A DNA stretch of 60,630 bases from a virus, in IMG/VR virus record IMGVR_UViG_3300046727_000269. The stretch is one strand, 5' to 3'. Position numbers and translations under genes: made by a program. The notes under the pieces are model-generated. The model was not told where the DNA came from and did no database searches. It saw nothing but the letters and a program-made list of their open reading frames with translations. Shown here in pieces: positions 7,094 through 30,225 of this stretch (positions within the stretch are counted from its first letter, which is position 1; each line of letters starts with the position of its first letter).

Positions 7094-7101
7094 ACTTCTT
7101 A

Positions 7102-7260
7102 CTACCTACTGCGCTTCTTTTTAGTGTCCTGCCTGTCCGCACTCGGTGACGGCATCGGACCTTCCCCGCATTCCTCACATGCTACGTTGCGTCCCATGTC
7201 GGATTGCGTGGCCCCACACCAAGGACACTTCACTTCTTCTACTGGTTCCAGTTTTTTCAT
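7102..7260 (-). CDS. Zinc-ribbon protein (52 aa)
   Basis: Hand translation MKKLEPVEEVKCPWCGATQSDMGRNVACEECGEGPM...KKKRSR; CxxC...CxxC; ATG 7260 shares 1 nt with the upstream stop (TGATG). Confidence 0.5.
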   Translation of the reverse strand: MKKLEPVEEVKCPWCGATQSDMGRNVACEECGEGPMPSPSADRQDTKKKRSR

Positions 7261-7985: not shown

Positions 7986-7989
7986 GTGA

Positions 7990-8277
7990 TTAGATGTTCC
8001 CCTCAGATTTCTTAGCCTCATCGTAGATTGGGATGCACGGGCACTGGAATACCCCATGGTCCTCACATCGCTTGTGGGCTTGGGCAAACTCTTTGGCAGC
8101 GTCAATGTTCAGAAAGTCTTTATCCGGGAATTGAACAGCGTACATAGACTGCGGGCAACCCTTGTTCTTGGGATCGTATCTGGCTATCGACACAAACACC
8201 CGATCCCCAGAAATTCCAAACCAGTTTCCACCAACCTCTTTCCACTGCAACAGGGGTACACCAATCTCTTTAGACAT
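7990..8277 (-). CDS. Hypothetical protein (95 aa)
   Basis: ORF track; tightly packed. Confidence 0.6.
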   Translation of the reverse strand: MSKEIGVPLLQWKEVGGNWFGISGDRVFVSIARYDPKNKGCPQSMYAVQFPDKDFLNIDAAKEFAQAHKRCEDHGVFQCPCIPIYDEAKKSEGNI

Positions 8278-8280
8278 ATC

Positions 8281-8613
8281 TTAGTGCCCCCCCGGTGTCT
8301 TGCCCGTCGGAGGAATCAACGTGGCCCCGTACAGAGGATTCTCGGCCCGCCTGATGTACTCCGTAAGATTGTGGATCGCGGCCAATCCCTCGGCTTCCGC
8401 CATTCGGAGTTGGGCGAGTTGGACCTTGCAAAGGGCGACGGTGAGAGGGTCCTCAACAACATCCCTTAAGTCCGCGTTGACCTTAGACTCTCTCCCCGCC
8501 TCCACCAGCACCTTAATACATTCCGTCGTCGTGGCTACCCTCGCCTCGATCCCAGGCAATTGTGCCTTGGCCTGTTCCAACGCCTGCCTCTGCCTCGGAT
8601 CAGCGGGACCCAT
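8281..8613 (-). CDS. Hypothetical coiled-coil protein (110 aa)
   Basis: ORF track. Confidence 0.55.
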   Translation of the reverse strand: MGPADPRQRQALEQAKAQLPGIEARVATTTECIKVLVEAGRESKVNADLRDVVEDPLTVALCKVQLAQLRMAEAEGLAAIHNLTEYIRRAENPLYGATLIPPTGKTPGGH

Positions 8614-8878
8614 ACATCACCTCCAGTGCCGTCTGCTCTTTCCTCACGAACCTGTCCACGGTCTTGTGGGTGTCCACGATGGTATGGCACTTCTCCTTAT
8701 CCAACGTATCCCCGTCCGGCGTCACTACGACTCCCGGATTCTTTTGCTTTTTGAGGGTGATGGATAACGCGGCACAACGTACGTTGGAGAATCGGGCGAC
8801 TGGGTTGCCTTTGCCCGACACGACAATGTACGGGTGCTTGGCGGGATCAAGAAAGAGAAACTGACTCAGAACAGACAT
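8600..8878 (-). CDS. Hypothetical protein (92 aa), first gene of the leftward operon from the divergent region
   Basis: ORF track; start faces the 150-nt divergent region shared with the plus-strand HTH gene. Confidence 0.55.
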   Translation of the reverse strand: MSVLSQFLFLDPAKHPYIVVSGKGNPVARFSNVRCAALSITLKKQKNPGVVVTPDGDTLDKEKCHTIVDTHKTVDRFVRKEQTALEVMYGSR

Positions 8879-16053: not shown

Positions 16054-16764
16054 CTACCTCAATACGGTGGTGAGGGGGGACAACGTGGCGGGGCCAAAAC
16101 ACTCTCTTCGGTAGAACGGCTCCTGTGATGGATCGTGCCCCACGTACCACTCATACTTCCGTTCCCGCTCGGCCTTGTCCAGGTACCCATAGTGTAGGAG
16201 TCGGATCGGTTCCGGCTCGTGCAATCGTGGCTCACAGGAGATATGGGAGACGGGGACACTGGTAGGGTGCAGAGGGCCGGAATGATTCCTAAACTCCATG
16301 TCGGGCCGGATCAAACGGAATATCGACGGCCTGTAACATTTCGCATAGTGCCCATCCGTTCGTACCGCGTTCACCGAGTCCCACAGGTAAAGGATCTGTA
16401 CCGTCCAATGATTCATCACGTGGCCGAGGGACGAGAGGTAGAGCTTAGGGCGATCCTCCTCCACTAACACCTCATCCCCGTCAATTGAGAATACCCAATA
16501 CTGTGACCCTGGCCCGATCCAATCGAGGGGGATGGTGCTGGTGATGGCCCTCAGTAACCACGTCTTGTCACGCGCCTCGTCCAAGCCAGTGAACGGGGAA
16601 AGGAAATACCGGCACTTGTCATAGGCGTGGATGATGTCGGGGGTCGAGTCGGTGGAATGGTCGTCAAGGACGAAGATTTTGTCACAGACCGGGAGGATGG
16701 ATTGGAGGCACTGGTGGAGGTATTTTTCTTCGTTGAATACACGGAGCATTCCGTAGACGGGCAC
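16054..16764 (-). CDS. Family-2 glycosyltransferase
   Basis: YGMLRVFNEEKYLHQCLQSILPVCDKIFVLDDHSTDSTPDI; paralog of 16919..17686. Confidence 0.8.
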   Translation of the reverse strand: MPVYGMLRVFNEEKYLHQCLQSILPVCDKIFVLDDHSTDSTPDIIHAYDKCRYFLSPFTGLDEARDKTWLLRAITSTIPLDWIGPGSQYWVFSIDGDEVLVEEDRPKLYLSSLGHVMNHWTVQILYLWDSVNAVRTDGHYAKCYRPSIFRLIRPDMEFRNHSGPLHPTSVPVSHISCEPRLHEPEPIRLLHYGYLDKAERERKYEWYVGHDPSQEPFYRRECFGPATLSPLTTVLR

Positions 16765-16922
16765 TACTTTTCTCTCCGATCTAGTGGAGTGAACTCAACA
16801 CACTCACATCCCGATATGATGCAGGGCCAAGGTTGGTCTCTATAAATGTCGTGGCACGCTATCGTGTGCCCACAATGAATGCACTGGTCGGAAATCAACG
16901 TGGGCATGTCCGGTTCAATCAT
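16764..16922 (-). CDS. Small zinc-binding protein with CxxCGH...PCxxxxCxC motif (52 aa)
   Basis: MIEPDMPTLISDQCIHCGHTIACHDIYRDQPWPCIISGCECVEF; ATGA overlap with the upstream gene. Confidence 0.55.
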   Translation of the reverse strand: MIEPDMPTLISDQCIHCGHTIACHDIYRDQPWPCIISGCECVEFTPLDRREK

Positions 16923-17686
16923 CCTACTTTCTCCACTCTCAACGGCCCCGCCCACTTCAACTTCGCTTCCCTCGGCACCCACACCACGTCCCCTTGAACA
17001 ATATGCCGGTACCCATCCTCCGTCATATTCTCCGGGTCAATCTGGTTGTACCATTTATATTTCCGCAACCGATCCTCCTTGTCCATGTACCCGTAATGCA
17101 GGAGTCGGGCTGGGCTCGGGCACGAGTGGTGCAAAAGCTCCTGTGGAATGTTTGAGCAGTGAAAGTTAGCCCCGTTCCCCCAGGGGGTGGACATGTAGGT
17201 AAAGGCGCGGTTCATCAGGCGAAACAGGGACGGACGCCGAAACTCCCCATACACCCCGTCCACCCTCACCTGATCCGGGGAATCCCATAGGTATAGGATT
17301 CTCGGGCTATGCACGTGCTGTGGGCCTTTCACGGCGTCGGCAAGTATCTCCCAGTCACCCGCCGCCAACTCCTCGTCACCGTCTATCGCAAGGCACCAGT
17401 AGGGGGAGGCTTCGTTGCCACTCAGGTAGTGTTGATCTCCGTTGGGGACCTTGCCGAAGAGTTTTTGCAGGAGCCAATTTTTATCGCGGGACTCATCGAG
17501 GCCGACGAACTCGGACCTGTATACCGTGGTGCAGGGAAGGCCCTCGCAGATTTCTACGGTATTGTCTGCTGATCCGTCGTCCAAAACAAACACCCAGGAA
17601 CACAGGGGCAATATCGAGTGGATTACCCGTGCGATCCACCGGCCTTCGTTTTTCACACGCAACATGCCGAACACGGTAGGTGTCAT
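16919..17686 (-). CDS. Family-2 glycosyltransferase
   Basis: FGMLRVKNEGRWIARVIHSILPLCSWVFVLDDGSADNTVEI. Confidence 0.8.
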   Translation of the reverse strand: MTPTVFGMLRVKNEGRWIARVIHSILPLCSWVFVLDDGSADNTVEICEGLPCTTVYRSEFVGLDESRDKNWLLQKLFGKVPNGDQHYLSGNEASPYWCLAIDGDEELAAGDWEILADAVKGPQHVHSPRILYLWDSPDQVRVDGVYGEFRRPSLFRLMNRAFTYMSTPWGNGANFHCSNIPQELLHHSCPSPARLLHYGYMDKEDRLRKYKWYNQIDPENMTEDGYRHIVQGDVVWVPREAKLKWAGPLRVEKVG

Positions 17687-17874
17687 AGTCCATGTCGTAT
17701 AAAAAACTCTTCGTCCAGGATATCGGAGATCCGAACACCAGTCCGTTTAACGTCCTGTGGCCGGACAGGATTGTTGGCGGGATTCTTGGCCGCTTTCTTC
17801 CCAGCCTTCCGTTTCATGGCGGAGACTTGGCCGGGGGAAAGTTTCTTTTTTACCCTAGATAATTCTGTTGCCAT
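17683..17874 (-). CDS. Small basic protein (63 aa)
   Basis: ORF track; KKKLSPGQVSAMKRKAGKKAAKNPANNPVRP; overlaps the upstream gene end by 20 nt. Confidence 0.4.
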   Translation of the reverse strand: MATELSRVKKKLSPGQVSAMKRKAGKKAAKNPANNPVRPQDVKRTGVRISDILDEEFFIRHGL

Positions 17875-18718
17875 AAAACCCCCTGGGCCGTGGCACCTTA
17901 ATCAGATCCCACTCGGTGCCATCGATCACCACCGTCTCGGGGGATGCGTTCAGCCCCGGCAACTTGCTCTTAAAATACTTCTCCATGTGGAGGGCATTCG
18001 TGTTCCAGTCGAGTACCCTCAACACATTCTCGGAATGGTAGTTCACGTTCTTCCCACAGAAGTATGCCAACTCTTCATTCATCCACCGCACGATCCCGGC
18101 ATTGATCCTCTCCAACGATTCAGGCGACCGGGAGGATGTCTCGTCGTGGGTGACAGCGACTTCTGGCACGCACGCTATCTGGTACCCGGCGATACGTAGC
18201 CTCCGACACCAGTTCACTTCCTCATGGTGGCCTATTTCCGTGTTGAACGGTCCCACCGTCCTCTGTGCCATTCTACTCGTGACCCAACAGAATCCAGCGG
18301 ACCAAAGACACTCGGTATATTGTCCATTGTTCACGGGGTAATGCCCGTGGCCGGGGAATACTAATCCGAGGGAGTGAAACCTGTCCAGGAATGAACACAG
18401 AGACTCGTCCCATCCTGGACTTTGGACATAAGCATCGTTATCGAGGTATCCGATGTATTCGGTGGTAGCCAATTGAAACAGTTTGTTGACGGCTCCTGCG
18501 TAACCAGAGTTGGCTTGGACAATAGGCACAATCCTACCGTCAGAGTTGCAAACCGTTTTAAGAACCTCTTGAGCATCCACACTCTCCTGTGAACCGTCGT
18601 CGTTATGAATAACAAAGAGTCGCCAGTCGGTGGTGCTGAATTGTTGCACGTACTGGATGGTCCGGCGTAACTTCTCGGGGGAACGGAAGGACGCGATGCC
18701 AATGTCTAGTCGTCGCAT
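17855..18718 (-). CDS. Family-2 glycosyltransferase
   Basis: LDIGIASFRSPEKLRRTIQYV...WRLFVIHNDDGSQES; DNDAY motif. Confidence 0.8.
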   Translation of the reverse strand: MRRLDIGIASFRSPEKLRRTIQYVQQFSTTDWRLFVIHNDDGSQESVDAQEVLKTVCNSDGRIVPIVQANSGYAGAVNKLFQLATTEYIGYLDNDAYVQSPGWDESLCSFLDRFHSLGLVFPGHGHYPVNNGQYTECLWSAGFCWVTSRMAQRTVGPFNTEIGHHEEVNWCRRLRIAGYQIACVPEVAVTHDETSSRSPESLERINAGIVRWMNEELAYFCGKNVNYHSENVLRVLDWNTNALHMEKYFKSKLPGLNASPETVVIDGTEWDLIKVPRPRGFYGNRII

Positions 18719-18724
18719 AAAACT

Positions 18725-18838
18725 TTAGGCACGTACGGAGTTTTTGTCCAGGCCCACCGACCGATAGCCGCCGTGTTGTAAGCCATTATCCATTGAATTG
18801 GATTTCGATAGAGAGCCGGGGTCCTCCAAGTCATCCAT
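18725..18838 (-). CDS. Small ORF (37 aa)
   Basis: MDDLEDPGSLSKSNSMDNG...; fills the gap between the two glycosyltransferase genes; weak evidence. Confidence 0.3.
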   Translation of the reverse strand: MDDLEDPGSLSKSNSMDNGLQHGGYRSVGLDKNSVRA

Positions 18839-18866
18839 AGCCAATTCACGTAGGCACGTATAAGTG

Positions 18867-19586
18867 TCATAATCCCATCTCCACCACGGCCCGTTGCAAC
18901 TCTTCAACACTCGGCTCCACCAGTTTCACCGCCCTCTCATTGACCTGTGGCATATCCGGGGTGAAGCTCACGATGATTTGTTTCTTGCCAAAGAGTGCCG
19001 CGACGTTGGTAAAACTCGATAGCACCCCAACGAACCCCGCCGACCCCAACACAGCATTCACCATCGCCTCGAATCCTTGGTTGGGCAACATCTCCCACCC
19101 CGGCCCCGGCTCGTACTCTCCAGGTAGCCCTACCGCTTTTACCGGCCTTGCGTACGTCACTTCCCTCACCACCATTCGGCAATTCTTCCAGTCGTGCCTT
19201 GTGTAAGGATGGACCACCGTATAGTCCCCGTCCACCACCTCGATCCCGTGGACTTCCAAAGGTTCCGCAAATCCCTCACACTCCCCTGCGTGGATGACTT
19301 GTTCCTGTGGGTACTCACTCGTCACAAATTTTAGGGCCGGTGATATTGCAAGGAACCCTTTACCCGGACAGAACTCGTGTTCCACCACGTCCGGGTCCTC
19401 AATCACCCTCTCTATTTTGTAATCCGCTCCCTTGACATACTTCTTCGCCCACTCCCATACAGGCAACGAGTAGGACCCTGAGACGAGATGTACGTCACGG
19501 TCCCGGCATAGGCCCACGACGGCGGGTAGGTGAGTCCAGGAGTCACCCATGAGGAACCCAACGGAAGAGACTACAATTGGTGTCAC
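18867..19586 (-). CDS. GT9-like (heptosyltransferase-type) glycosyltransferase
   Basis: SVGFLMGDSWTHLPAVVGL near the N-terminus and GFVGVLSSFTNVAALFGKKQIIVSF near the C-terminus resemble GT9 patterns; GTG 19586 overlaps the upstream stop (GTGA). Confidence 0.55.
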   Translation of the reverse strand: MTPIVVSSVGFLMGDSWTHLPAVVGLCRDRDVHLVSGSYSLPVWEWAKKYVKGADYKIERVIEDPDVVEHEFCPGKGFLAISPALKFVTSEYPQEQVIHAGECEGFAEPLEVHGIEVVDGDYTVVHPYTRHDWKNCRMVVREVTYARPVKAVGLPGEYEPGPGWEMLPNQGFEAMVNAVLGSAGFVGVLSSFTNVAALFGKKQIIVSFTPDMPQVNERAVKLVEPSVEELQRAVVEMGL

Positions 19587-20203
19587 ACCTTCTCCAGTAA
19601 CGCCATGGGAAACACGGGCTCCCCTCCCGAGTCCAGTTGCCGCCACCCGTTCTGAAGCAGGTATGGGATGAGGAAAATGCCCTTGCCGTCGTACGTTACC
19701 GGGTCGGTATCGTCAATCAGCATCAGACTCCCCGGTACGAAGCAAGCCGGGTCGAACTGTTTGTGCAGTTCAATGTAAAAAGACGGGATCTCCGGGTGAC
19801 GTTTCACGAACGCTTTATAATCGTTCTCACAGATCAACTCGAATCCCGCATCCACGTACAGCAACGCGATGGGCTCGTGCAGGCCAGGGACCCAATCGTA
19901 GGCATCGCCTAGGGTAATCTCCGGGAGTGCCGAGTACTCGGGGATGTAGGTTTCGAGGATCGTCCTGCAATTCCTCACCGCCCCTTCTCGGACATCGATG
20001 GACTTGATCCGCGCCCCGTACTTCCCCGCGTACCATGCGTACGCCAACATCGCGTTACCAAGTCCGTTGGGGTTGTAGGATTCGGAAGTGCCGATTTCAA
20101 CGATCAAGGGGTTGCCGCCCACTCTTCTTTCGTTGACCAATTCCAGTGTCCGCTTCAACGTCTTCTCCCGGCCAAAAGGCGGGTGCCCGGTCCAGTCAAT
20201 CAT
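19583..20203 (-). CDS. Class I SAM-dependent methyltransferase-like protein
   Basis: Start taken at ATG 20203 (MIDWTGHPPF), 12 nt after the motif; LIVEIGTSESY motif I-like, LLYVDAG. Confidence 0.6.
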   Translation of the reverse strand: MIDWTGHPPFGREKTLKRTLELVNERRVGGNPLIVEIGTSESYNPNGLGNAMLAYAWYAGKYGARIKSIDVREGAVRNCRTILETYIPEYSALPEITLGDAYDWVPGLHEPIALLYVDAGFELICENDYKAFVKRHPEIPSFYIELHKQFDPACFVPGSLMLIDDTDPVTYDGKGIFLIPYLLQNGWRQLDSGGEPVFPMALLEKV

Positions 20204-20613
20204 TTTGTGCCTCCCTTTCCCTGTGAAAAAGACCATTCCCAATTCTTCACTTCATGCTCGTCCTGGTCGTCGGGTCGCCACGCGGGACTCGGCATGTTGA
20301 GGACGTAGGCAAACCCATCCCCCTCGTTGTACAGTGCGGCGGGGACTCCAGGACTCACGGGGATAGGGTCGTCCTCTTCATCCACCACGGTACTGATGTA
20401 GACCCCTTGGCTAGTCCGTATCACGAGGTGGACTGTGCCTAGGATCACCTTAAACAACCCCCGACGTTTCATGTGGAGGTGTGGGCCTTTCACTGTGAAA
20501 GGTGAAATCACCGTCAAGTACACTTGGTCAACTGGTGGGCCGTCCAGCACGTTCCAAATCGGGACGAGATATCCGTTTATCTTACCGTCACTCCCTTTCG
20601 TCTCAATTTTCAT
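20200..20613 (-). CDS. Cupin-fold sugar epimerase/isomerase (RmlC or WxcM/FdtA-like)
   Basis: 137 aa; KGPHLHMKRRGLFKVILGTVHLVI; neighbours are nucleotide-sugar enzymes; last codons contain motif copy 20216-20228. Confidence 0.6.
   Translation of the reverse strand: MKIETKGSDGKINGYLVPIWNVLDGPPVDQVYLTVISPFTVKGPHLHMKRRGLFKVILGTVHLVIRTSQGVYISTVVDEEDDPIPVSPGVPAALYNEGDGFAYVLNMPSPAWRPDDQDEHEVKNWEWSFSQGKGGTK
20216..20228 (-). promoter_or_regulatory. TTTCACAGGGAAA motif, exact copy, gene sense
   Basis: Embedded in the last codons (FSQGKGGTK*) of the cupin gene; 12 nt before ATG 20203. Confidence 0.65.
20488..20500. promoter_or_regulatory. Motif variant TTTCACTGTGAAA (perfect 6-1-6 palindrome)
   Basis: One mismatch to the main motif; lies inside the cupin coding sequence. 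Confidence 0.35.
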
Positions 20614-22181
20614 AACGGTTTCCTATACCAATTGCTCGACTCCTGTACGAACCCGATGGAGTTGAGCAATGGGTCCCAGTCCTTTTCAAAATGATCGTTC
20701 ACGGTCAGGTGCATGGGAATACTCCCCTGTGGGCCACTACCACAATTGAAGGCGTTTTGTGCGAAAAACAATCCCCCCGGCACCAAGTTTCCGTAGATGG
20801 CCCGTACCCACTCCTCGACATTAGGAACGTGCTCCAGGAAGTCCGCCGACACGATAGCATCGAATGCCCCTAGTGGGATGTCAAAGTCAAGCCTATCTCC
20901 GGGATAGCTGATGGGAGTGAAGGTGCCCGTCTCTAGCAACTGAATCACGTGCCCACGCATCTGGAAACTGGACTCGGCAAAGTTGGCAATCCGGCTCCAG
21001 TAGAGGTCGTTGTAGCACGGCGACATCCCGGCCTGCGCCACGGCAAGGGATAAGTCCCCGGTCCCGTCCCCGAGGCATAGTACCGTTTTCTTCCCGTCCG
21101 CCTTCAACCTGTCCACGATCCCCTTGCACATCCCCACGTAGTTGAATCCAGGATGCACGTGGTACGCCGTCAACTCCCAGATGTACGCCTCCGTCTCTCG
21201 GTACCACGCCGTCAACTCTTCGTCAGTCGTAGGATTGGCCCGCCTAAAATCCTCTGCCACCTCCCCGTGCAAAGTGCCAAACCCACTCTCCAGCTTTTGC
21301 AAACACGTCTCGTGTGGCAGGTGGAGGAACGCGGCAATCTCTTTCGACTTGTAATGCACGTCATCGGCCTGTCTTGATTCCCACTCTTGACGAAGACGGA
21401 TCAGACCGTTAGCCAGAGATACCGTGTGGTACGATCCCACCTCGTACGGTCCCGTCGTGTCCAGAGGCCGAGGCGCTAATCCCGGTAGATCCTCGTGCTT
21501 CACCGGAACCACGTCCTGGTTGCTTGCCAAGAGCACCGCCAATTCGTACCGGGATACTCGCGTGGGGCCACCTACGTAGTGGATGGACCGCGTAGGAGGG
21601 GCTTGACACAGCTTCCAAATCATCTCCGCCACGTCCCACGCAAATGCGACGGCAAAGTATCTGTCGTCTACCGATTGGTGCTCTTGGCCTGCCAACATTC
21701 TTTCAGCGGGATTCTCTCGCCCTATGCCGGGGAAGGGGCGAATACCAAGGACGAAGGTGGGGCGGACGATGGTGTAGTTACTGTACCCACCAAACGCTAA
21801 GTAGTCATCCGCTTTACGTTTTTGCTCACCATAAGCATTCACGGGGTCCAGTGCCGCTTGACTACTTGCATGGATCAGGTGTTTGTTGTGGGTATCACAC
21901 CATGTCACCAGAGCATCAACAAGGTCACAGTTCACTTCCCAATATCTCACTGATGGACTCTGCTCTACTACATCCGGCCTACTCTCACCGGCCAAGTTTA
22001 CAACCACGTCTGGCATCAACTCATTCAATAAGTCGTCAGGTTCATTCACACGGAATGCGTCAAATCCCCGGTACAAATGGCTCTCAGTCCTCCGTGTGAA
22101 TGTGGCGTCCACTCCCACTGGCACCGACACGTGCAAATGTTGACCGATGATACCCCCGGCCCCGATCACTACCACTTTCAT
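20610..22181 (-). CDS. Fusion protein: NAD(P)-dependent sugar reductase/epimerase (RmlD-like) + SAM methyltransferase
   Basis: Start ATG 22181 (ATGA overlap); MKVVVIGAGGIIGQHL Rossmann motif; C-terminal half has VLCLGDGTGDLSLAVAQAG and LVPGGLFFAQ methyltransferase motifs. Confidence 0.75.
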   Translation of the reverse strand: MKVVVIGAGGIIGQHLHVSVPVGVDATFTRRTESHLYRGFDAFRVNEPDDLLNELMPDVVVNLAGESRPDVVEQSPSVRYWEVNCDLVDALVTWCDTHNKHLIHASSQAALDPVNAYGEQKRKADDYLAFGGYSNYTIVRPTFVLGIRPFPGIGRENPAERMLAGQEHQSVDDRYFAVAFAWDVAEMIWKLCQAPPTRSIHYVGGPTRVSRYELAVLLASNQDVVPVKHEDLPGLAPRPLDTTGPYEVGSYHTVSLANGLIRLRQEWESRQADDVHYKSKEIAAFLHLPHETCLQKLESGFGTLHGEVAEDFRRANPTTDEELTAWYRETEAYIWELTAYHVHPGFNYVGMCKGIVDRLKADGKKTVLCLGDGTGDLSLAVAQAGMSPCYNDLYWSRIANFAESSFQMRGHVIQLLETGTFTPISYPGDRLDFDIPLGAFDAIVSADFLEHVPNVEEWVRAIYGNLVPGGLFFAQNAFNCGSGPQGSIPMHLTVNDHFEKDWDPLLNSIGFVQESSNWYRKPL

Positions 22182-22924
22182 ACCGTCACCTCCGGGAACA
22201 ATGCCGCCCACTCGCTCTCTTCCCTCTTCTTCCCATGATTATCCACTCCCCATTTCTCGATGAAGAGTTTCAGGTTGGGTTTGAAGTCGGCGGGTTGGCC
22301 TGAACGAAAAGAGGAGCGAAGTGTGGAGTGGTCCACGTAGCAGAGGTCGTACACCCCAATCTTCAACCCTGCCTCTCGCACCGCTGCACAAAAGTCATCG
22401 TCCTCGACAGCGTAATCTACATACCGTTCATCGAGGAGTCCAGGGTAAGGTTCTGTTTTGAGGGGGAGATTGAATGTATGGCGAGGGATGTACACACAGA
22501 GGAAACAAACCATCCGGGGCTCATCCCTCAACCCCTTCCTATCCCCGTATGGCCTTACCGTTTGGTTCGGATTCCCTGCCGCGTCCGTTACTGCCGCGAT
22601 CACCCCATACTCAGGGTTGGCCTTACTCACGGCTTCCATCTTCGTGAACCCGTCCGGTGTCTTGAGAATGGCATCGTCATTCAACAGAATCACGTCATCG
22701 TCCCCCGCCGCTCGAATCCCAATGTTGGCGTTGCGGGCAAAGATGAAAGGCTTCTCCCCAGCCACGTATCGAATCAACCCGGACGTAGGGTACTCAGCAT
22801 ACACACCTTCCAACCCATCGTCCACAACAATGATCTTGGCGTCGGGCTCATTGGACCTGACGGCACCTACACAGGTTCTTAGGTTGTTGATGTTCTTGCT
22901 CAGTATAACGACGGAAAATCCCAC
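22178..22924 (-). CDS. Family-2 glycosyltransferase
   Basis: FSVVILSKNINNLRTCVGAVRSNEPDAKIIVVDDGLEG; GTG start 15 nt after the motif. Confidence 0.8.
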   Translation of the reverse strand: MGFSVVILSKNINNLRTCVGAVRSNEPDAKIIVVDDGLEGVYAEYPTSGLIRYVAGEKPFIFARNANIGIRAAGDDDVILLNDDAILKTPDGFTKMEAVSKANPEYGVIAAVTDAAGNPNQTVRPYGDRKGLRDEPRMVCFLCVYIPRHTFNLPLKTEPYPGLLDERYVDYAVEDDDFCAAVREAGLKIGVYDLCYVDHSTLRSSFRSGQPADFKPNLKLFIEKWGVDNHGKKREESEWAALFPEVTV

Positions 22925-22939
22925 ACGTGTACCTACCCT

Positions 22940-22952
22940 TTTCCCTGTGAAA
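22940..22952 (-). promoter_or_regulatory. TTTCACAGGGAAA motif, exact copy, gene sense
   Basis: In the 71-nt gap heading the glycosylation operon; 15 nt before GTG 22924. Confidence 0.7.
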
Positions 22953-22995
22953 GACTATTGAGCTTTACCCGTTCTACGTGCTCGGGGACAGTCTA

Positions 22996-23460
22996 TCACT
23001 TGATGCACTCAAGCACAACTCTTATTTTCCACACTTCCTCGTACGCGTCCTGGTAGGCCGTTTCCCCAATCTCCAGGATCTTGAACCTCGCGGTAATTCC
23101 GTACAGGCCCGCGAGCCGATTCACCGCAAAGCTCCCCGCCTCGTAGTACTGGAAACTATTGAGGCACCACCCCGACTTATGCGTAGGGTCCTGCCAGTAC
23201 CCGGCACCTCGGCTCGCGTTGGGGGTGATAATCTCTACCCTCGCCCCCGCCCCCATCACCCGGTGAAGCTCATTCATGAAGTGGATGCGGTCGGCAATGT
23301 GCTCGATGATGTCGTGGGCAATTACTTCCGTTACCGACGACGTTTCCCAGGGCCAAGGGAGGGACAGGTCCACAATCGCGTCGGCGGGAGGCCCTACGTC
23401 CACGTTAGTAAATCCAGGGAGGAGGATATCCGCACAACCGAGGTTCAGTTTCTTAATCAT
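22996..23460 (-). CDS. SAM-dependent methyltransferase (Methyltransf_11-like)
   Basis: 154 aa; KLNLGCADILLPGFTNVD...VTEVIAHDIIEHI...ELHRVMGAGARVEIITP. Confidence 0.7.
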   Translation of the reverse strand: MIKKLNLGCADILLPGFTNVDVGPPADAIVDLSLPWPWETSSVTEVIAHDIIEHIADRIHFMNELHRVMGAGARVEIITPNASRGAGYWQDPTHKSGWCLNSFQYYEAGSFAVNRLAGLYGITARFKILEIGETAYQDAYEEVWKIRVVLECIK

Positions 23461-25562
23461 TGGCGGGACACGTTCCCTCCTACTGTGACAATGACCGATC
23501 CGCCTCTAGATGTTGGTATCACTGATAAATTGCTCATAACCGGAACGCCAGTGTTAGCCGTGCGAAGTGCGGCATATAGGGTGTTGTCTGTGACCGTAAC
23601 GGGGATGGTGATAGACACGGGAGTGAACTCCAGGCAGGTAGGCAACAGCGTACATAGATCAATTTGCAACGGAGAATAGCCCAAAAGATCCCATGCTCCC
23701 CCTACCGCACTCCCCCCTGGAACCGTCCCAGGACCATTGTAAATCACTCCATTCACATCCATACCAAAGGTAATGACCCCTGTAGAATAGGCTCCCCCAA
23801 AAGCGAAATTGTATGTCACATTGTAGGTTCCGTTTGGAACGATATATTTAAATCTGAGATCATCACCGAACCAGCAAGTCTGATACAACCCGACATCAGT
23901 CAGTGGGGGCCACCCGAACGGGCTGTAGCATACCGTATTCCCCGCAAGTCTCCAGATCGCTCCGTTCCCCGTATACCAGATGTTCCCATTCGCGTCTGGG
24001 CCATAATTACCATCCGGCGCAAGGCTTGACCCGTTAAGGTGGATGTAAATTCCCGTGTTCGGGTAGCTAAATACGTTGAAGTAAATCGCTTGGCTACTAT
24101 CCGCTGTTGGCGTGATGGTGACTATAGTAGTCTGCCGACTTGCACAAGTTGCGGGAGGCGTATAAAGTCCGCCGCTGGTCAATGTGCCGATCGATGGACT
24201 CATGGTAGCCGTAAATGTTGTAGTCCCTGAGCCGTTTACCCACACCGGGAGTTGATACGCGGGAGCCCCACACATAAAAGAATATCCAATCGATTGCGCA
24301 GTTCCGACCATTACGGGCTGTAGGATTACAGGCATCGTGGAAGATTCGGATGAACCGTTCGTTGCAATCACAGTGACAAAATCATCCGGCGTCACTGAAC
24401 CATTAGCGGGATCGACGCGACCTGTTTGATAGCCGGGAGAGGTCACAGTCATGTCTTCTAAAGAAGATTCGTCTACAACCTCAAATTGGGTTGCCGGAAC
24501 TCCTCCTCCACCAAGCATCTCCTGTTCAAGAGCGTAGAAAAGAGTATATGTCCCAACGGCATCCGTCATGGTTTGAACAGCCATGCGGTTCCCGCCGTCG
24601 TCCATGAAGAGGCCATAGTCCTTTACAGCGGTCAGGAAGCATTGTACGGCAGTACTATACCCAGAAATGTTAAATGAAGATTTCAGGCGCACCCTGGTTC
24701 CATACGGGATCATCCCAGCGAAAGGGTTGGGAATCGCCGTGGCGGGCCAGACGAAGTAGTTTGCATTTAGGCTATTATCTAGCGTGAACCGAAATCCATG
24801 CTTGATCGGTACCCCGTTGTCAATACAGTTCTGTATTTCCGAGTAGCGTAACGCTAGGGGGATCATGGGCATCCCAGAGGCATCGGCAGTTCCGGTTGTA
24901 GGCTGAATGTAGTTGTCGTGATACTTGTATCCGCTCTGGGCGTTACAGGTTATGCACTCGCCGACATTATCCCCAATTTTGTAGGGGGCATACACTTCGT
25001 AGAAAGTTCCGTCCTGCCGATTGACCCCCAACACATGATGGTCATTAGCCGGACTTCCGAAAAAACCAGCCTCAACTCCGATATCCGCTATCCCGAGCCA
25101 CGGGAAATTGGCGTTCTGTCCCGAGGTGTAGTTAAAGAGCATCGGGATCGTAGGCGTCAAATTTGTATACAAGTTCTGAGGAAAACTGATTTCCAAGTGC
25201 AGCGCTTGAGACCCTACTTGAGTTTGCAGATATGTGGTCAGCCCAGCATCGGTAGGTAGCGCATCGATGCGGGTGTTTATCACGTGATCGTTTGGGAGCG
25301 CCTGCACGCCTAGGAAGTTATTTTTGGCTGTCACTGATGAAGGGGCCGTATAGAGACCAGTGGAAGAGTTTATGGAACCCTTGCTTCCAGCCGCCAGGGT
25401 CCAGGTAACAGCCTGATTTGCCGTTAACGTCATTGTGGTATTTGCGGCTACGCAGGGGATCGGGCCTCCTGGGTCTGGATGGCAAGTAGTCGTTCCGGGG
25501 GTGATCGTAGGTGCAACTGCCCAGCAGTTAATCACCGTTAAGAAGAAAATAATCCTGTTCAT
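23457..25562 (-). CDS. Large signal-peptide protein (701 aa), Ig-like N-terminal region, Thr/Ser/Asn/Gly-rich
   Basis: Start ATG 25562 (MNRIIFFLTVINCWAVAPT); TLTANQAVTWTLAAGSKGSINSSTGLYTAP is Big-like; many NxS/T sequons. Confidence 0.7.
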   Translation of the reverse strand: MNRIIFFLTVINCWAVAPTITPGTTTCHPDPGGPIPCVAANTTMTLTANQAVTWTLAAGSKGSINSSTGLYTAPSSVTAKNNFLGVQALPNDHVINTRIDALPTDAGLTTYLQTQVGSQALHLEISFPQNLYTNLTPTIPMLFNYTSGQNANFPWLGIADIGVEAGFFGSPANDHHVLGVNRQDGTFYEVYAPYKIGDNVGECITCNAQSGYKYHDNYIQPTTGTADASGMPMIPLALRYSEIQNCIDNGVPIKHGFRFTLDNSLNANYFVWPATAIPNPFAGMIPYGTRVRLKSSFNISGYSTAVQCFLTAVKDYGLFMDDGGNRMAVQTMTDAVGTYTLFYALEQEMLGGGGVPATQFEVVDESSLEDMTVTSPGYQTGRVDPANGSVTPDDFVTVIATNGSSESSTMPVILQPVMVGTAQSIGYSFMCGAPAYQLPVWVNGSGTTTFTATMSPSIGTLTSGGLYTPPATCASRQTTIVTITPTADSSQAIYFNVFSYPNTGIYIHLNGSSLAPDGNYGPDANGNIWYTGNGAIWRLAGNTVCYSPFGWPPLTDVGLYQTCWFGDDLRFKYIVPNGTYNVTYNFAFGGAYSTGVITFGMDVNGVIYNGPGTVPGGSAVGGAWDLLGYSPLQIDLCTLLPTCLEFTPVSITIPVTVTDNTLYAALRTANTGVPVMSNLSVIPTSRGGSVIVTVGGNVSRQ

Positions 25563-25563
25563 T

Positions 25564-26283
25564 TTATTGCCCCAAGAAGACTGCATTTGCGGCAACGCAG
25601 ACTCCGGCACTAGCAGTCCACGTTGGATTCACCGTACCAGAGCTTACTAGATAACTAGCTCGGCCACCAAAGTTTGATCCCGATCCAGGCATATTGGTTA
25701 GTTCATTGGCGGTGAATCCAAGGTCTACGGTGAAAGTTGCATTCGCCGCCGAAGCTGTCCCCGTCAATGTGACGCTATTTGAATTGCTGGGCGTCTCGCT
25801 TCCCCCCTGGCAGGTACTAGCTCCCGTTGCGCCCTTATCCGAACCGGCGTCAAATACTCCGCTTGTCTTCATCCCACTGAATACGAAGTAGCAAACATCA
25901 GAGAAGCTGGCTGCGACAGAAACGGAGAGAGAGTGCCCCGTGGACATGGACGCGGGGTTCTGCTCATAGAACACCTGAATAGAGGCATCACCCGTGAAAG
26001 CATAACGAGTGAGCGTAGTAATGCTGTTTCCTTGATCGTCTGTGACTACAGGAACGCCGAAATCGTATCCTATGGCGTAGCCCGCTATGAAGTTCCCTCC
26101 GGTGGCGTTGAAGGTTGGAGTAGTGCCGCCGTTAGCACCCAGAATCACGCAATCGCCCGTAATAAAAGTTGGAGTGGTTCCCCCGGAGCTAGCCTTGCCT
26201 GCCAGGATCGGAAGAAGGATCTGCGCTCGCAGGTTGCAGAGTGGAGCCAAAAGAAGAATAAATGCTAGGAGATAATTTGTCAT
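25564..26283 (-). CDS. Signal-peptide protein (239 aa)
   Basis: Start ATG 26283 (MTNYLLAFILLLAPLCNLRAQ), 2 nt after the upstream stop. Confidence 0.6.
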   Translation of the reverse strand: MTNYLLAFILLLAPLCNLRAQILLPILAGKASSGGTTPTFITGDCVILGANGGTTPTFNATGGNFIAGYAIGYDFGVPVVTDDQGNSITTLTRYAFTGDASIQVFYEQNPASMSTGHSLSVSVAASFSDVCYFVFSGMKTSGVFDAGSDKGATGASTCQGGSETPSNSNSVTLTGTASAANATFTVDLGFTANELTNMPGSGSNFGGRASYLVSSGTVNPTWTASAGVCVAANAVFLGQ

Positions 26284-26285
26284 GC

Positions 26286-27725
26286 TCAGTGCTTCGTCCA
26301 TGTCCCCGAGTGCGGTAGGAACATCCAGTGCGTCGAGTCGATTCCATAAACGCAAGCTCCATCGCGGGCCGCGCCACCTGAGGTCACGTTGCCGCCCGTC
26401 GCCGTCAGCGTGCCATCGGTGAACACCATAAACTGACCGCTCGCCGAGGTGGAGAACGTGAGCACGCCAGTGTCCGCCGCCGACCCATTCCACCCATTGT
26501 CGATACAGCGTTGGAGCCCTGATGCCGCCGTTGGCAAAGTGTACGTTACTCCTGCCCCCGCCGTTGCTTCTTGATTGACTGTAAACGCCGTTGAAAGGAC
26601 TGCACTCGTCCCAGTGGTAATGACTGTGACAGCACTCCCCGACAACACAATCCAATTGGTCCCATTACAGTAGATTGATACATGATTTGTCCCGCTCCCC
26701 GCTACCACGGCCCCCTGCTCAGTTGTAGTTGAGTCCGTTACAGTGCCGATCGTGCCGTCGTAAGAGGATGAACAGGATGGGAAGTTGCTAAAGGCTACTG
26801 GTGGGTATTCCGTACCGTGCCACAGTGAACTTGGGACGGAAGCCACGGCACTCTGGTAAGAGGCACCGTCCCATGTAAAATCCTGTAGAGTAGTCGCTCC
26901 AGATGTGCAATCGGGAGCTACTCCTCCCTTGAAGATTGCATTGTACGCTACCGTACGACAGGATGTGTCCTGTATCCAAATGATTCGGTAAGGCCCAGAT
27001 CCGTGAGGATTGCTAGGTACACCTAAAGTTGTGTTCCCGGACGCCATCGTTATTACCGTGACGTTGGATAAACTCCAGTCAATAGTAGTGGTGCCCCCTG
27101 ATACGTAGGTAGTGGTACTGGGTGGTGCCCAAGTCAAGGCTTTAGAGGCGTTGATGGACCCGTCAGACCCTTGGTTGAGATTAGCAGGCCCACAGATACC
27201 AGCACCAACAAACAACTGTATGTCTCCAGCAACACCTTGAGGACAATTACTCCCTGACCCACCACCACCGCTTCCGGCGTACCCAGTTTTGTATCCATAT
27301 AGGACACCAAATACCGTCCCCGTTCCCGTCAACCCAGACAGAGTGACCCGGATGAAGGGGATGTCTACGGTGCCGTTCTTAAACGTCGTCACGGCCCCGG
27401 TAGTAGAGGTGTTAGGGTTCGCCCCCGTAGCGACGGTACCGGCGTACGTGACCCAGGAACCGGGAGTGGTAGGGGTAGAGGCGGGGGCGGACTGCACCGT
27501 GATGGTGAGTCCGCTGAACCCCACGGAGGTATATTGAAACGTCCACGTTTGACAGGCGGTGAAGTAATTGGCAAAAGTGGATGTAGACCCCGCCGTGGTG
27601 CGATTGTTTATCAATATCACACAGTCCGGGGGCGGTGGATTGTTCTGGGCACGCGCATCTTTCCCTGTGAAAAGGGCCAATGCCATCAGTAGAACAAAAA
27701 GCGAAGCGTACTTTTTCGGTCGCAT
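26286..27725 (-). CDS. Signal-peptide protein (479 aa), Thr/Ser/Gly/Asn-rich
   Basis: Start ATG 27725 (MRPKKYASLFVLLMALALFTGKDARAQNN); sequons NRT, NTS, NGT, NVT, NTT, NGS; motif copy lies inside the signal-peptide codons. Confidence 0.7.
   Translation of the reverse strand: MRPKKYASLFVLLMALALFTGKDARAQNNPPPPDCVILINNRTTAGSTSTFANYFTACQTWTFQYTSVGFSGLTITVQSAPASTPTTPGSWVTYAGTVATGANPNTSTTGAVTTFKNGTVDIPFIRVTLSGLTGTGTVFGVLYGYKTGYAGSGGGGSGSNCPQGVAGDIQLFVGAGICGPANLNQGSDGSINASKALTWAPPSTTTYVSGGTTTIDWSLSNVTVITMASGNTTLGVPSNPHGSGPYRIIWIQDTSCRTVAYNAIFKGGVAPDCTSGATTLQDFTWDGASYQSAVASVPSSLWHGTEYPPVAFSNFPSCSSSYDGTIGTVTDSTTTEQGAVVAGSGTNHVSIYCNGTNWIVLSGSAVTVITTGTSAVLSTAFTVNQEATAGAGVTYTLPTAASGLQRCIDNGWNGSAADTGVLTFSTSASGQFMVFTDGTLTATGGNVTSGGAARDGACVYGIDSTHWMFLPHSGTWTKH
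27660..27672 (-). promoter_or_regulatory. TTTCACAGGGAAA motif, exact copy, gene sense, intragenic
   Basis: Encodes LFTGK within the signal peptide of 26286..27725, 53 nt after its ATG. Confidence 0.5.
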
Positions 27726-28098: not shown

Positions 28099-30225
28099 TT
28101 AGTGCCTCGGCCAGAAGTACCCGTGCAGTCCCGCGACTACGTTCCCCACCCCCGCCGTCAGTGCCCCCGTGACGTTCGGTGCCGCGACGATGTACCGGAT
28201 CAGATCACCGGACCTGACTTGAAGCCCCCCGGCAATGGGTGACATGTTCTGTAGCGTGCCGATGCTCACCTCCATCAACCCACAGTCCCGCATGAAGCGG
28301 CCCGCAGATTCCAGCCGCCAAACAATGTCCCCAGAGCCCTCGACAAAGATTGGCACGGGGAACGCGGTGGGATCGGTAATGTACCCGTGGTACTGGCCCA
28401 GGATCACGCCATCGTAGCCTATGGGGACACGGAACTGGAATATCACGTTGTCACCCGAGGCCACCGTGGGTAACGGGATCGCCCCGGTAGGATTGAAGGC
28501 GATGGCTCCCTCGGGCGGTCCCATCGGCACTTCCTCGTGCTCGGAAAAGTTCCCGCCCCAGTCCCGCTCGTCAGTACAAAAACAGAACGGCTTCACCCCA
28601 CACTTGAGGAGTTCCCGGTTGATGAGCTTATAGAGGAGGTATTCTCGGCCTAAGCACGAATCAAAGTGGTTGAGGATGACGTGAATGAATCCTCTACCCC
28701 CCGTTGACGGTACTGGCGGGATGACGATAGAGCAATTTGCAGTTGCCGTTGCCCCGAGTGAATCAGTCGCTTGCACCGTGAAGGAGAAGGTGCCGGACAG
28801 TAATGGAATCCCCGTGATGATGCCGGTGGCGGGATCGAGGGTTAGGCCAGGTGGGAGAGAACCGGAAATGATGGCGTAGGTGTAAGGGGGCGTACCACCT
28901 GTCGCTACTACCGTCCCCGTGTAGAGGATGTTCAACGTGGCGGAACCGATGGGACACGTGACGATGACGGGGGCCACGACTCCTATGGATAAATGAAACT
29001 GCCCTTGATATATCTCCGTCCCCGCTTGAATTGGGAAAAGTCCAATCATTGCTCTGACGCCAAAACTAAGTTGGCGAACAGAGACAGAGTTGGGGGTGTT
29101 CTCCCCGTTAAGACCACCCGCTTGAGGCGGTGGCGTAACGGGGGGGTCCACCGCCTTGTCCCAGTAGACCGATTCCACCGCCCAAGGTCCTACCAACGCG
29201 GGGGACGTGGACTGGAGTACTTGATTCGGAGTATTCCCCGGCCCAGGCCCTTGCCACGTCCACATGGAGGTGAGAGTGAGGCCGTCTGGCGAAATGCAGA
29301 AGTCCGTCCAGAAAGTGTCCTCGTCCGCATTGATATCCGAGGCCACCACCACCGTTGCAAACACTGGCGGCGACACACTCATATCTGCCGTAAGCATGGT
29401 TGGTTGGATGGTGGAGGGGGTAGGGAAGAAGGGGAGGCACCAACCAATCTTGTTTTCCGCCGCTACAAATTTCCCCTGCGCGTTCCACCCTTGGCCGAGA
29501 TCGTAGCGATTGTCGTTCCAAGGGGTGGAGTAGGGGAACGCGACGGATTTTGCCGAGAACCCACCACCCGAGGTCCAGGTAGCCACGTAGTACTGGGCAT
29601 CCACCTGTGAGTCCCACGTCATCACCACCGTGTCGGCATTGTCAATCCCCATGAGGTTGACGAAGTTTGAAGCGGATAGACTGCCCGCCTGGAGTAGGTG
29701 AGGGGTGCCCCAGACTCCCGCTGAGGAACACGTTACCGCGAGTACGCTACCGGTGCCTGATGACGTATCCGTGTAGAATGCAACAAAGGTCCCCGTTGAG
29801 GTCCGTGCTAGAAGTTGGTTTGGTGCCGAGGCCCCCGCATTCGGCCCCCCCGTGGCAATCGAAGTCCACGTGTCGGTAGCCATGTTGAAACTGAAAATCG
29901 ACAGTGGGTTAGAAAACTTACCTACCCCTTGTTGCGTGAGGATGTAAAGGATATTGCCGCCAGACGACGGGTAGAAGCAGGAACTAAACCAGTCTTGGAT
30001 TCCCCCTGTTGGTGCTCCTGGGATGTCTTGTTCGGTGAAGGTCACTCCACTGTCAGTGGATTTGAAAACCCCGGTACGGATTGCTACCTGGGTAACGGCG
30101 TCGAAGACGGACAATACTTCGTAGATCGCGCCACCGCGCTCAAACGGGCCTTGGTTTCCGTCTCCTAGGTTGTACCCATAGATGATGTCCCCAGGCTGAA
30201 TGATGTGTGGTGTTGGTCCCGGCAT
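28099..30225 (-). CDS. Fibre/spike-like protein (708 aa): propeller-like N-terminus, Ig-like domain, C-terminal domain paralogous to 30955..31623
   Basis: Asp-box-like STDSGVTF; TGGTPPYTYAIISGSLPPGLTLDPATGIITGIP Ig-type repeat; C-terminal VPIGYDGV...FVEGSGDIVWRLESAGRFMRD...GYFWPRH matches the neighbouring 222-aa protein. Confidence 0.75.
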   Translation of the reverse strand: MPGPTPHIIQPGDIIYGYNLGDGNQGPFERGGAIYEVLSVFDAVTQVAIRTGVFKSTDSGVTFTEQDIPGAPTGGIQDWFSSCFYPSSGGNILYILTQQGVGKFSNPLSIFSFNMATDTWTSIATGGPNAGASAPNQLLARTSTGTFVAFYTDTSSGTGSVLAVTCSSAGVWGTPHLLQAGSLSASNFVNLMGIDNADTVVMTWDSQVDAQYYVATWTSGGGFSAKSVAFPYSTPWNDNRYDLGQGWNAQGKFVAAENKIGWCLPFFPTPSTIQPTMLTADMSVSPPVFATVVVASDINADEDTFWTDFCISPDGLTLTSMWTWQGPGPGNTPNQVLQSTSPALVGPWAVESVYWDKAVDPPVTPPPQAGGLNGENTPNSVSVRQLSFGVRAMIGLFPIQAGTEIYQGQFHLSIGVVAPVIVTCPIGSATLNILYTGTVVATGGTPPYTYAIISGSLPPGLTLDPATGIITGIPLLSGTFSFTVQATDSLGATATANCSIVIPPVPSTGGRGFIHVILNHFDSCLGREYLLYKLINRELLKCGVKPFCFCTDERDWGGNFSEHEEVPMGPPEGAIAFNPTGAIPLPTVASGDNVIFQFRVPIGYDGVILGQYHGYITDPTAFPVPIFVEGSGDIVWRLESAGRFMRDCGLMEVSIGTLQNMSPIAGGLQVRSGDLIRYIVAAPNVTGALTAGVGNVVAGLHGYFWPRH

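Follow-up and report, generated by a model that had tools for sequence, protein, structure and literature searches.

The window analysed here is the whole 60,630-nucleotide stretch of the virus record IMGVR_UViG_3300046727_000269 (IMG/VR), and its positions 16054-23460 hold an island of glycosyltransferase (GT), methyltransferase (MT) and sugar-tailoring genes. All open reading frames (ORFs) that an earlier note had listed for this island are present on the minus strand, with the coordinates given below in the order of transcription, followed by the adjoining upstream gene. We are highly confident that the island is a functional glycan-building cassette.

22996..23460, minus strand: MT3, small class I S-adenosylmethionine (SAM) methyltransferase, 154 aa; match to phrog_6636 (8e-11); first cassette gene, with a 4-nt overlap with the stop of the 709-aa gene.
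22940..22952, minus strand: 13-nt motif TTTCACAGGGAAA, one copy; lies 15 nt ahead of the start of GT2d, in the 71-nt stretch that is the island's sole intergenic gap.
22178..22924, minus strand: GT2d, GT-A glycosyltransferase of family 2, 248 aa; PF00535 33.1 bits; DDx motifs; core member in about 25 loci.
20610..22181, minus strand: 523-aa fusion of an RmlD-like extended short-chain dehydrogenase/reductase (SDR; NAD(P)H-dependent keto-sugar reductase type, residues 1-250) with a C-terminal class I methyltransferase (residues ~360-480); PF04321 55.5 bits; Methyltransf_23/11.
20200..20613, minus strand: small cupin, 137 aa, putative QdtA/FdtA-like dTDP-keto-6-deoxyhexose isomerase or epimerase; PF05523 E 0.006, below the cut-off; profile match to QdtA.
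20216..20228, minus strand: other island copy of the 13-nt motif, 12 nt before the MT1 start and still within the cupin gene (3' end).
19583..20203, minus strand: MT1, class I COMT/MeT1-like O-methyltransferase by predicted fold, 206 aa; accessory module.
18867..19586, minus strand: compact GT-B glycosyltransferase with GT9-like predicted fold, 239 aa; accessory module, always paired with MT1.
18706..18870, minus strand: small ORF, 54 aa, not conserved; overlapped by a 61-aa ORF (18725-18910) that the gene caller favours instead.
17855..18718, minus strand: GT2c, GT-A glycosyltransferase of family 2, 287 aa; PF00535 48.2 bits; D93-N-D95; best-conserved core GT.
17683..17874, minus strand: small basic ORF, 63 aa, isoelectric point (pI) 10.8, called by the gene caller.
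16919..17686, minus strand: GT2b, GT-A glycosyltransferase of family 2, 255 aa, core member; PF00535 28.4 bits; D102-G-D104.
16764..16922, minus strand: Cys/His-rich ORF, 52 aa ('Zn module'); zf-C3HC4_5 E 0.0066, below the cut-off; not called by the gene caller.
16054..16764, minus strand: GT2a, GT-A glycosyltransferase, 236 aa, tandem paralogue of GT2b; PF00535 35.8 bits, PF13704 34.6 bits.
23457..25586, minus strand: 709-aa protein with signal-like N-terminus and 25% Ser+Thr+Asn, a candidate acceptor; adjoins the island and is translationally coupled to it.

The window is identical to a Logan contig from SRR26076595, for which the calls of an independent gene caller were available. Mechanical ORF calling puts three starts further upstream (19646, 20242 and 22211), whereas the shorter starts (19586, 20203 and 22181) agree with the independent caller and yield 4-nt ATGA/GTGA overlaps. 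From the 709-aa gene to GT2a the array comprises 13 ORFs with 12 junctions, eight of which are such 4-nt overlaps, in accordance with the translational coupling proposed earlier. The remaining junctions are overlaps of 1, 13 and 20 nt and the 71-nt gap between MT3 and GT2d. At its upstream end the array is coupled to a virion-like block, the ATG of MT3 overlapping the stop codon of the 709-aa gene by 4 nt, and it runs on to the lysis genes (SLT-like, then Amidase_2). The GC content of the island is 0.549 compared to 0.560 for the genome, and consensus promoter and terminator scans of the island remained at or below chance level. The 'Zn module' that had been counted among the island genes received no firm support: its zinc-finger match is below threshold, the gene caller does not call it and no homologue occurs in the related loci.

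Four island proteins (16054-16764, 16919-17686, 17855-18718 and 22178-22924) exceed the PF00535 gathering cut-off of 23.3 bits, and all four carry DxD-type motifs (DGD95-97, DGD102-104, DND93-95 and DDA83-85, respectively). From these sequence features they are GT2 glycosyltransferases. GT2a shares 35-41% identity with GT2b-type genes.

The fifth GT required another approach. The protein encoded at 18867-19586 gave no match in Pfam, NCBIfam, PHROGs or PDB sequences, a Pfam scan of 21 family members came back empty (0/21), PF01075 included, even at E <= 1, and the family profile was too weak against PDB sequences, so that the assignment came only via structure prediction and Foldseek. An AlphaFold model built from 21 homologues reached a predicted local distance difference test (pLDDT) score of 93.5 and a predicted template modelling score (pTM) of 0.89. 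In the PDB, Foldseek ranks the E. coli heptosyltransferases WaaC and WaaF, the protein heptosyltransferase TibC and a GT9 enzyme of Veillonella first, with other GT-B enzymes after them (E 1.4e-6 to 5e-4; TM score 0.54-0.64), and the top matches in a viral structure library are phage proteins annotated as RfaF, GT9 or Aah/TibC. Since the structural neighbours are GT9 enzymes and a family sequence match is missing, the model identifies the protein as a compact GT-B enzyme with GT9-like fold, not as a GT9 sequence member. The description 'GT9-like' given before is thus kept for the fold, nearest to WaaC/WaaF, and dropped for the sequence family.

MT1 was resolved in the same way. Its profile was too weak against PDB sequences (PaMTH1, E 0.2), whereas the predicted structure (pLDDT 92.4) gave the Mycobacterium hassiacum (M. 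hassiacum) sugar methyltransferase MeT1 as best Foldseek match, along with COMT-like O-methyltransferases (E 2e-8). According to this model MT1 is a class I O-methyltransferase. MT3 matches the PHROG methyltransferase family named above, and its homologues in three other loci (L002, L015 and L016; 40-47% identity) match Pfam Methyltransf_11 (PF08241).

The 523-aa fusion exceeds the cut-off of 27 bits for PF04321 (RmlD_sub_bind) twofold, and Methyltransf_23 and Methyltransf_11 are at or above their cut-offs, with the methyltransferase match at residues 371-485. An alignment with three homologues (45-58% identity) shows an invariant GxGGxxG (GAGGIIG), SSQ and YGxQK as well as the methyltransferase motif I VLCLGDGxGD, which reads VLCLGDGTGD in the window. 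The SDR catalytic residues S106/S107 and Y117-x3-K121 are likewise invariant. Because the NAD(P), catalytic and motif I residues are all retained, both halves of the fusion look active. TIGR01214 gives it only 56 bits (cut-off 224), so it does not count as an RmlD equivalog.

The cupin matches Pfam FdtA (PF05523) with 16.8 bits, below the cut-off of 23, and its homologue in locus L009 is also a weak FdtA match. A profile of four sequences found QdtA in the PDB with marginal significance (E 0.007), besides 3ejk ('dTDP sugar isomerase'), the cupin domain of Cap5F and WxcM-like proteins. Nine PDB matches were obtained, of which eight, among them every one with E <= 0.2, are cupins acting as nucleotide-sugar isomerases or epimerases. 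The motif KGPHLHMK (His-x-His), invariant in four homologues, aligns with RGYHSHKK of QdtA. Searches of the PDB with single sequences of the four unassigned island proteins gave noise only.

A profile or fold check of each enzyme had been set beforehand as a test, and all nine named enzymes were supported by it, the cupin marginally. The inventory of five GTs, three methyltransferase domains, one reductase and one cupin is thereby borne out by profile or fold evidence. The proposed product, a methylated and probably 6-deoxyhexose-containing glycan, is likewise supported by the enzyme families and folds. Transmembrane (TM) segments were found in none of the island proteins, and Pfam, NCBIfam and TM scans of the island revealed no flippase, polymerase or phosphoglycosyltransferase. 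Neither RmlA, RmlB nor another sugar-activating enzyme (nucleotidyltransferase, 4,6-dehydratase) was found anywhere in the genome.

The island is not restricted to this virus. The reductase-methyltransferase fusion has at least 264 metagenome clusters (90% identity) at E <= 1e-10; among the 120 matches listed all but five are full-length fusions (~500-600 aa), many of them from contigs 20-62 kb in size. In IMG/VR single-protein scans gave nothing, whereas an alignment query found 19 contigs with the fusion; a genome-collection scan with the GT-B alignment gave no match. Among 50,697 GenBank phage records tblastn with the fusion, GT2b and GT2c returned nothing relevant, and megablast with the island gave the same outcome. 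A cluster of this kind, called exceptional before, is therefore so among cultured phages (0 of 50,697 records), whereas it is widespread in uncultured ones.

Gene order was compared by tblastn across 30 loci. In about 25 loci other than the window the core order MT3, GT2d, RmlD/MT, cupin, GT2c and GT2b is constant at 40-60% amino-acid identity, with 41-60% for GT2c. The accessory pair of MT1 and GT-B occurs only in a subset (window, L006-8, L002/L024, L009 and L034) and is relocated in L003/L025, and the tandem GT2b duplicate, GT2a, is confined to the window and L006/L007. Six carriers are siphoviruses of the HK97 type (L002, L014, L015, L016, L017 and L027), in which the order is large terminase (TerL), portal, protease, major capsid protein (MCP), (connector), cassette, head-closure, gp10-like, tail completion, tail tube and tape measure. 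The cassette of L031 is placed between TerL and portal, and in L003 and L022 a Phage_capsid_4 MCP lies near the cassette. In L013 it is part of a 490-kb contig of an Acidobacteria metagenome-assembled genome (MAG) and directly precedes an integrase at the element end, which identifies this copy as a prophage. A 4-kb cassette contig was binned with Gemmatimonadota. The Acidobacteria host link belongs to the cassette homologue, not to the window virus.

In the closest relative, L006/L007 (62 kb), the cassette is complete, with identities of 31-83%, and L007 carries an integrase. In the window the island is inserted between genes for signal-peptide and fibre-like proteins and the lysis genes. Two further relatives, L036 and L037, share the structural block of the window, and the fetched 20-kb loci around this block contain no cassette gene. 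As the block is kept there without the cassette, the island is an accessory, acquired module even within the lineage of the window virus. Taken together, sequence comparison indicates that the cassette is widespread and horizontally mobile across at least three or four virion backbones.

Two of these copies show additional features. In L009 a gene of the family PF04989 RMNT_CmcI (rhamnosyl O-methyltransferase / CmcI family; 6155-6739, plus strand) lies directly before the MT1 and GT-B pair, which fits a methylated glycan with a rhamnose-type sugar. In L013 the MT3 homologue forms the C-terminal end of a 1222-aa ORF (4946-8614, plus strand), the rest of which weakly matches further glycosylase-transferase families; this frame is either a giant multi-domain GT-MT fusion or a product of merged ORFs.

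We interpret the island as an expanded copy of a mobile phage cassette that is expressed with the late genes and glycosylates virion proteins in the cytoplasm, an interpretation to which we give an even chance. Since the virus encodes neither RmlA nor RmlB, these enzymes of the host would supply dTDP-4-keto-6-deoxy-D-glucose. The QdtA/FdtA-like cupin would isomerise or epimerise the keto-sugar intermediate, and the RmlD-like SDR domain would reduce it to a dTDP-6-deoxyhexose. Soluble GTs (four GT-A and one GT9-like GT-B in the window, three to five across cassettes) would then add sugars stepwise to a cytoplasmic acceptor, most probably one or more virion structural proteins. SAM-dependent methyltransferase domains (three in the window, two to three across cassettes), one of them fused to the reductase, would O-methylate the sugars, with a methylated deoxyhexose-containing glycan coat on the particle as end product. 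The identity of the sugars, the order of the steps and the acceptor are the parts of this mechanism that we infer. With an FdtA/QdtA-like cupin and no aminotransferase the stereochemistry is not predictable, and rhamnose, 6-deoxytalose, 6-deoxyallose and fucose are all possible. A virion acceptor is suggested because membrane, flippase, polymerase and priming enzymes are missing, because the cassette is translationally coupled to late genes and because it was inserted repeatedly and independently within head-assembly modules.

Several observations weigh against virion glycosylation. The MCP of L002 has no Ser/Thr-rich C-terminal tail such as is found on glycosylated mycobacteriophage capsids. 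The position of the L013 copy at the prophage end beside an integrase is a typical site of lysogenic conversion. Three neighbours of the window island carry signal peptides, and if these proteins are the acceptors, glycosylation would have to precede export. As neither capsid nor portal nor terminase genes could be recognised in the window virus, its virion proteins are only deduced. In the loci compared no non-enzyme gene was found that co-occurs with the cassette across backbones and might be a shared acceptor. Finally, the sequence-based assignment of the cupin to the QdtA/FdtA type is statistically marginal.

Some of these points would suit a different target, the host envelope. There, the soluble GTs would act at the inner face of the membrane on undecaprenyl-PP-linked O-antigen or exopolysaccharide (EPS) units, and an altered, methylated deoxyhexose polysaccharide, exported by the flippase and polymerase of the host, would serve superinfection exclusion or lysogenic conversion. 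GT2 enzymes that work on lipid-linked intermediates are often soluble or peripheral. Both the L013 cassette directly before the integrase at an element end and the integrase of the closest relative L007 point in the same direction, and O-antigen conversion by GTs of temperate phages is established, as stated in PMC12619734. However, the cassette contains no GtrA/GtrB-like protein, Wzx, Wzy, priming transferase or any membrane protein, and the product of five GTs would have to suit Wzx and Wzy of the host. In at least eight loci the cassette occupies a head or packaging module instead of a moron site, and the window copy is joined to the late gene array by translational coupling. The position in head modules of several backbones favours the virion over the host envelope as target, and we consider envelope remodelling the less likely, though still serious, alternative. 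O-antigen conversion of the Gtr type was rejected, as there is no membrane protein and no matching Pfam, NCBIfam or PHROG hit.

A variant of the virion idea seeks the acceptors in the immediate vicinity of the island. Three consecutive proteins of 709, 245 and 479 aa (23457-27725, minus strand) have Sec-type signal-like N-termini and 24-31% Ser+Thr+Asn, which agrees with the earlier description of exported, Thr/Ser/Asn-rich neighbours, and MT3 is coupled to one of them. Signal peptides are unusual among the proteins of a phage structural block. The 709-aa protein (23457-25586) gave no Pfam, PHROG or PDB match. These three proteins and the He_PIG fibre-like protein could be glycosylated in the cytoplasm before Sec export, like autotransporters modified by TibC/Aah or serine-rich adhesins modified by GtfA/B, and end up exposed on the cell or on a virion of unusual, perhaps membrane-containing, type. 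The overlap of the MT3 start with the 709-aa gene stop, the composition and hydrophobic N-terminal segments of the neighbours, and the presence of TibC and a phage 'Aah/TibC' protein among the structural neighbours of the GT-B would all be in line with this proposal. So would L006, in which three signal-peptide proteins are also found just upstream of the cassette. These are largely non-homologous to those of the window, though: the 507-aa protein upstream of the L006 cassette is not homologous to the 709-aa protein, and only the N-terminus of the L006 436-aa protein matches the 479-aa protein. The neighbours do not travel with the cassette, since the siphovirus copies are without such adjoining genes, and L036 and L037 retain a 479-aa-type protein without a cassette. 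In addition, the GT-B belongs to the accessory part of the cassette only. That these neighbours are the acceptors appears improbable to us.

Deoxyhexose tailoring with three O-methyltransferases has, to our knowledge, no precedent among DNA glycans. DNA decoration with various glycans by phage GTs is on record (Pyle et al. 2024, as cited in PMC12619734; T2, T4 and T6 in PMC9614988), so that the phage DNA might be hypermodified with an oligosaccharide to evade restriction, comparable to the glucosyl-hydroxymethylcytosine of T-even phages. This is highly improbable and was rejected, since the whole-genome Pfam/PHROG matches include no thymidylate-synthase-like dNMP hydroxymethylase or other base-hypermodification gene. 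The cassette, moreover, is located among head or late genes instead of replication genes.

The island belongs to a soil virus. An exact direct repeat of 127 bp at window positions 1-127 and 60504-60630 corresponds to an assembly overlap, so that the contig is circular or terminally redundant with a genome of ~60.5 kb. No tRNA genes were found in it. Among the gene products are a family A DNA polymerase, split into two pieces that lie apart, as well as two helicases, ParB, an ERCC4 nuclease, a resolvase, a lytic-transglycosylase-like protein and an Amidase_2 endolysin. Of the split polymerase, the gene at 58233-59747 (minus strand) contains the uracil-DNA glycosylase (UDG)-like and 3'-5' exonuclease domains and that at 54000-55439 (minus strand) the polymerase domain. 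The two genes are ~2.8 kb apart, and an ORF with weak likeness to GIY-YIG endonucleases (57769-58257, minus strand) abuts the exonuclease piece.

The island sits within a longer array of genes on the same (minus) strand, roughly from 13.8 to 44.6 kb. About 30 consecutive minus-strand genes at 23457-44577 gave no terminase, portal, capsid or tail match in PHROGs/Pfam, and PHROG, Pfam and PDB profile searches for the capsid of the window virus all ended without identification. A block of genes for proteins of 156, 611, 337, 214, 141, 284, 210, 222, 708 and 479 aa recurs in the IMG/VR viral contigs L036 and L037 (41 and 61 kb). The lineage of the window may be one of viruses with an undescribed or highly divergent virion.

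Within this block, the 284-aa protein (32432-33286, minus strand) has 251 homologous clusters (50% identity), mostly of 270-310 aa, and no Pfam or PDB match. Its N- and C-terminal halves are clearly related (hhalign probability 99.1%, E 4e-19), each ending with YPxxSxIxFD...FxGVRR. This internally duplicated two-domain protein is possibly a capsid protein of the double-barrel type. The 337-aa ORF (34656-35669, minus strand) has a pI of 12 and many repeats of the NPR(R/K)K type across ~200 residues, followed by a hydrophobic, TM-like C-terminal third; it is split by the gene caller, and its C-terminal part is conserved in L036 and L037. The protein may be DNA-condensing and membrane-associated. 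The 708-aa He_PIG (Ig-like) protein (28099-30225, minus strand) and the 222-aa protein (30955-31623, minus strand) share a C-terminal domain of ~190 aa that ends with ...G(W/Y)xxPR and of which three copies occur in L036 and two in L006. This shared domain is a modular spike, penton or fibre anchor domain.

The 13-nt motif TTTCACAGGGAAA, two copies of which had been described as heading sub-operons of the island, is present at 22940 and 20216, yet it is a genome-wide element. There are 12 exact copies in the genome (644, 3609, 7081, 20216, 22940, 27660, 33779, 37523, 44601, 48183(+), 50952 and 51618), 11 of them on the coding strand, and 17 copies within 2 mismatches compared to 1.6 expected. 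The motif is absent from all fetched relatives, including the closest cassette-bearing one. With its genome-wide occurrence, variable spacing and absence from that relative it is not a property of the island. A function as ribosome-binding site was rejected, as the distance to the next start ranges from 2 to 23 nt and some copies lie within coding sequence. A role as promoter, regulatory site or RNA-processing site specific to this genome is possible.

Experimental demonstrations of virion glycosylation are limited to a few mycobacteriophages, where this modification alters antibody recognition. In soil-virome studies phage GT2 genes are usually listed as auxiliary metabolic genes for carbon utilisation (e.g. 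PMC11924767). A conserved, mobile cassette of 6-10 genes inside head-assembly modules suggests instead that many phage GT genes serve the particle and not the metabolism of the host. It likewise suggests that glycan coats, here probably of methylated hydrophobic deoxyhexoses, are common among soil phages. Coats of this kind might influence how stable particles are, how they adsorb to soil matrices or EPS, which hosts they infect and how they evade receptors or defences. More broadly, and only tentatively, we propose that the cassette represents a widespread, so far unrecognised form of phage self-glycosylation, in which soil phages of Acidobacteria and other hosts tailor a dTDP-6-deoxyhexose from a host intermediate and build an O-methylated virion coat. 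It would be the counterpart of chlorovirus and mimivirus glycosylation and would move across unrelated backbones, including a lineage without recognisable HK97 capsid, portal or terminase. The compact, soluble and membrane-independent cassette might also be reused for protein glyco-engineering.

A limited literature search yielded no publication describing the cassette, and comparison with known systems is by parts. On the level of single enzymes, the extended SDR with RmlD domain and YxxxK, the small H-x-H cupin and the COMT/MeT1-like fold resemble bacterial dTDP-6-deoxyhexose pathways (RmlC/RmlD; the 3,4-ketoisomerases FdtA/QdtA) and the O-methylation of sugars after their transfer, as by MeT1 of M. 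hassiacum. In contrast to these, the usual partners of FdtA/QdtA (aminotransferase, acetyltransferase) are absent, reductase and methyltransferase are fused, and RmlA and RmlB are missing. The GT-B shares the fold of two Rossmann domains with GT9 enzymes (WaaC, WaaF) and TibC/Aah, whereas it is shorter (239 aa compared to ~320-400 aa), reaches a TM score of only ~0.6 and has no PF01075 match. With GtrABC the cassette has in common that GT genes are borne by phages, with the L013 copy at a prophage end by an integrase. Gtr systems consist of integral membrane proteins acting in the periplasm on bactoprenol-linked glucose, whereas the island proteins have no TM segments.

Closer in setting are the mycobacteriophages Che8, Corndog and Myrna, in which capsid and tail-tube subunits receive glycans from phage-encoded GTs (Freeman et al. 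2023, cited through PMC11256854, PMC12363180 and PMC12619734). They share with the present system soluble phage GTs, and their glycan shield, attached in the cytoplasm, is the kind of role proposed here. GT genes tied to a structural or late module are found here in L002, L014, L015, L016, L017, L027 and L031, and in the window between the virion-like block and the lysis genes. These mycobacteriophages carry few GTs and, as far as PMC11256854, PMC12363180 and PMC12619734 describe them, no nucleotide-sugar tailoring enzymes, whereas the present cassette comprises 3-5 GTs together with a reductase, a cupin and 2-3 methyltransferase domains. It is linked to Acidobacteria and similar hosts, the mycobacteriophage systems to actinobacteria. 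With regard to homology to Che8 gp110 or Corndog gp38, tblastn of GT2b, GT2c and the fusion gave no actinobacteriophage match (GT2a, GT2d and the GT-B were not searched).

Closer in logic are giant viruses of eukaryotes. In the chlorovirus PBCV-1, A064R (two rhamnosyltransferase domains and a 2-O-methyltransferase) and A061L (3-O-methyltransferase) produce the 2,3-di-O-methyl-rhamnose that is terminal on the capsid glycans (PMC9614988). Virus-encoded cytoplasmic GTs and SAM methyltransferases acting on a 6-deoxyhexose (L-rhamnose), as well as fused catalytic domains, are common features (PMC9614988). Differences are the eukaryotic host, the 330-kb genome and the scattered genes of PBCV-1 compared to the operon found here, and the fusion itself, which is GT-GT-MT in PBCV-1 and reductase-MT here, compared by description only. 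Mimivirus and Megavirus likewise have clade-specific clusters that combine genes for nucleotide-sugar synthesis or tailoring with GT genes for the virion surface in a bacterial-like organisation (PMC9614988). These amoebal giant viruses possess clusters of 6-21 genes with their own promoters and produce amino sugars derived from UDP-GlcNAc (PMC9614988), whereas the cassette described here is a translationally coupled operon in phages of 40-60 kb.

As an ensemble, the cassette is closest in logic to giant-virus glycosylation and in setting to mycobacteriophage virion glycosylation, and no sequence homology to either was seen. New are the conserved multi-enzyme architecture with a reductase-methyltransferase fusion, the deoxy-sugar tailoring inside a bacteriophage, the mobility across three or four virion backbones at least, and the frequent occurrence in uncultured phages, which apparently come from samples of soil or wood, in contrast to the absence from cultured ones.

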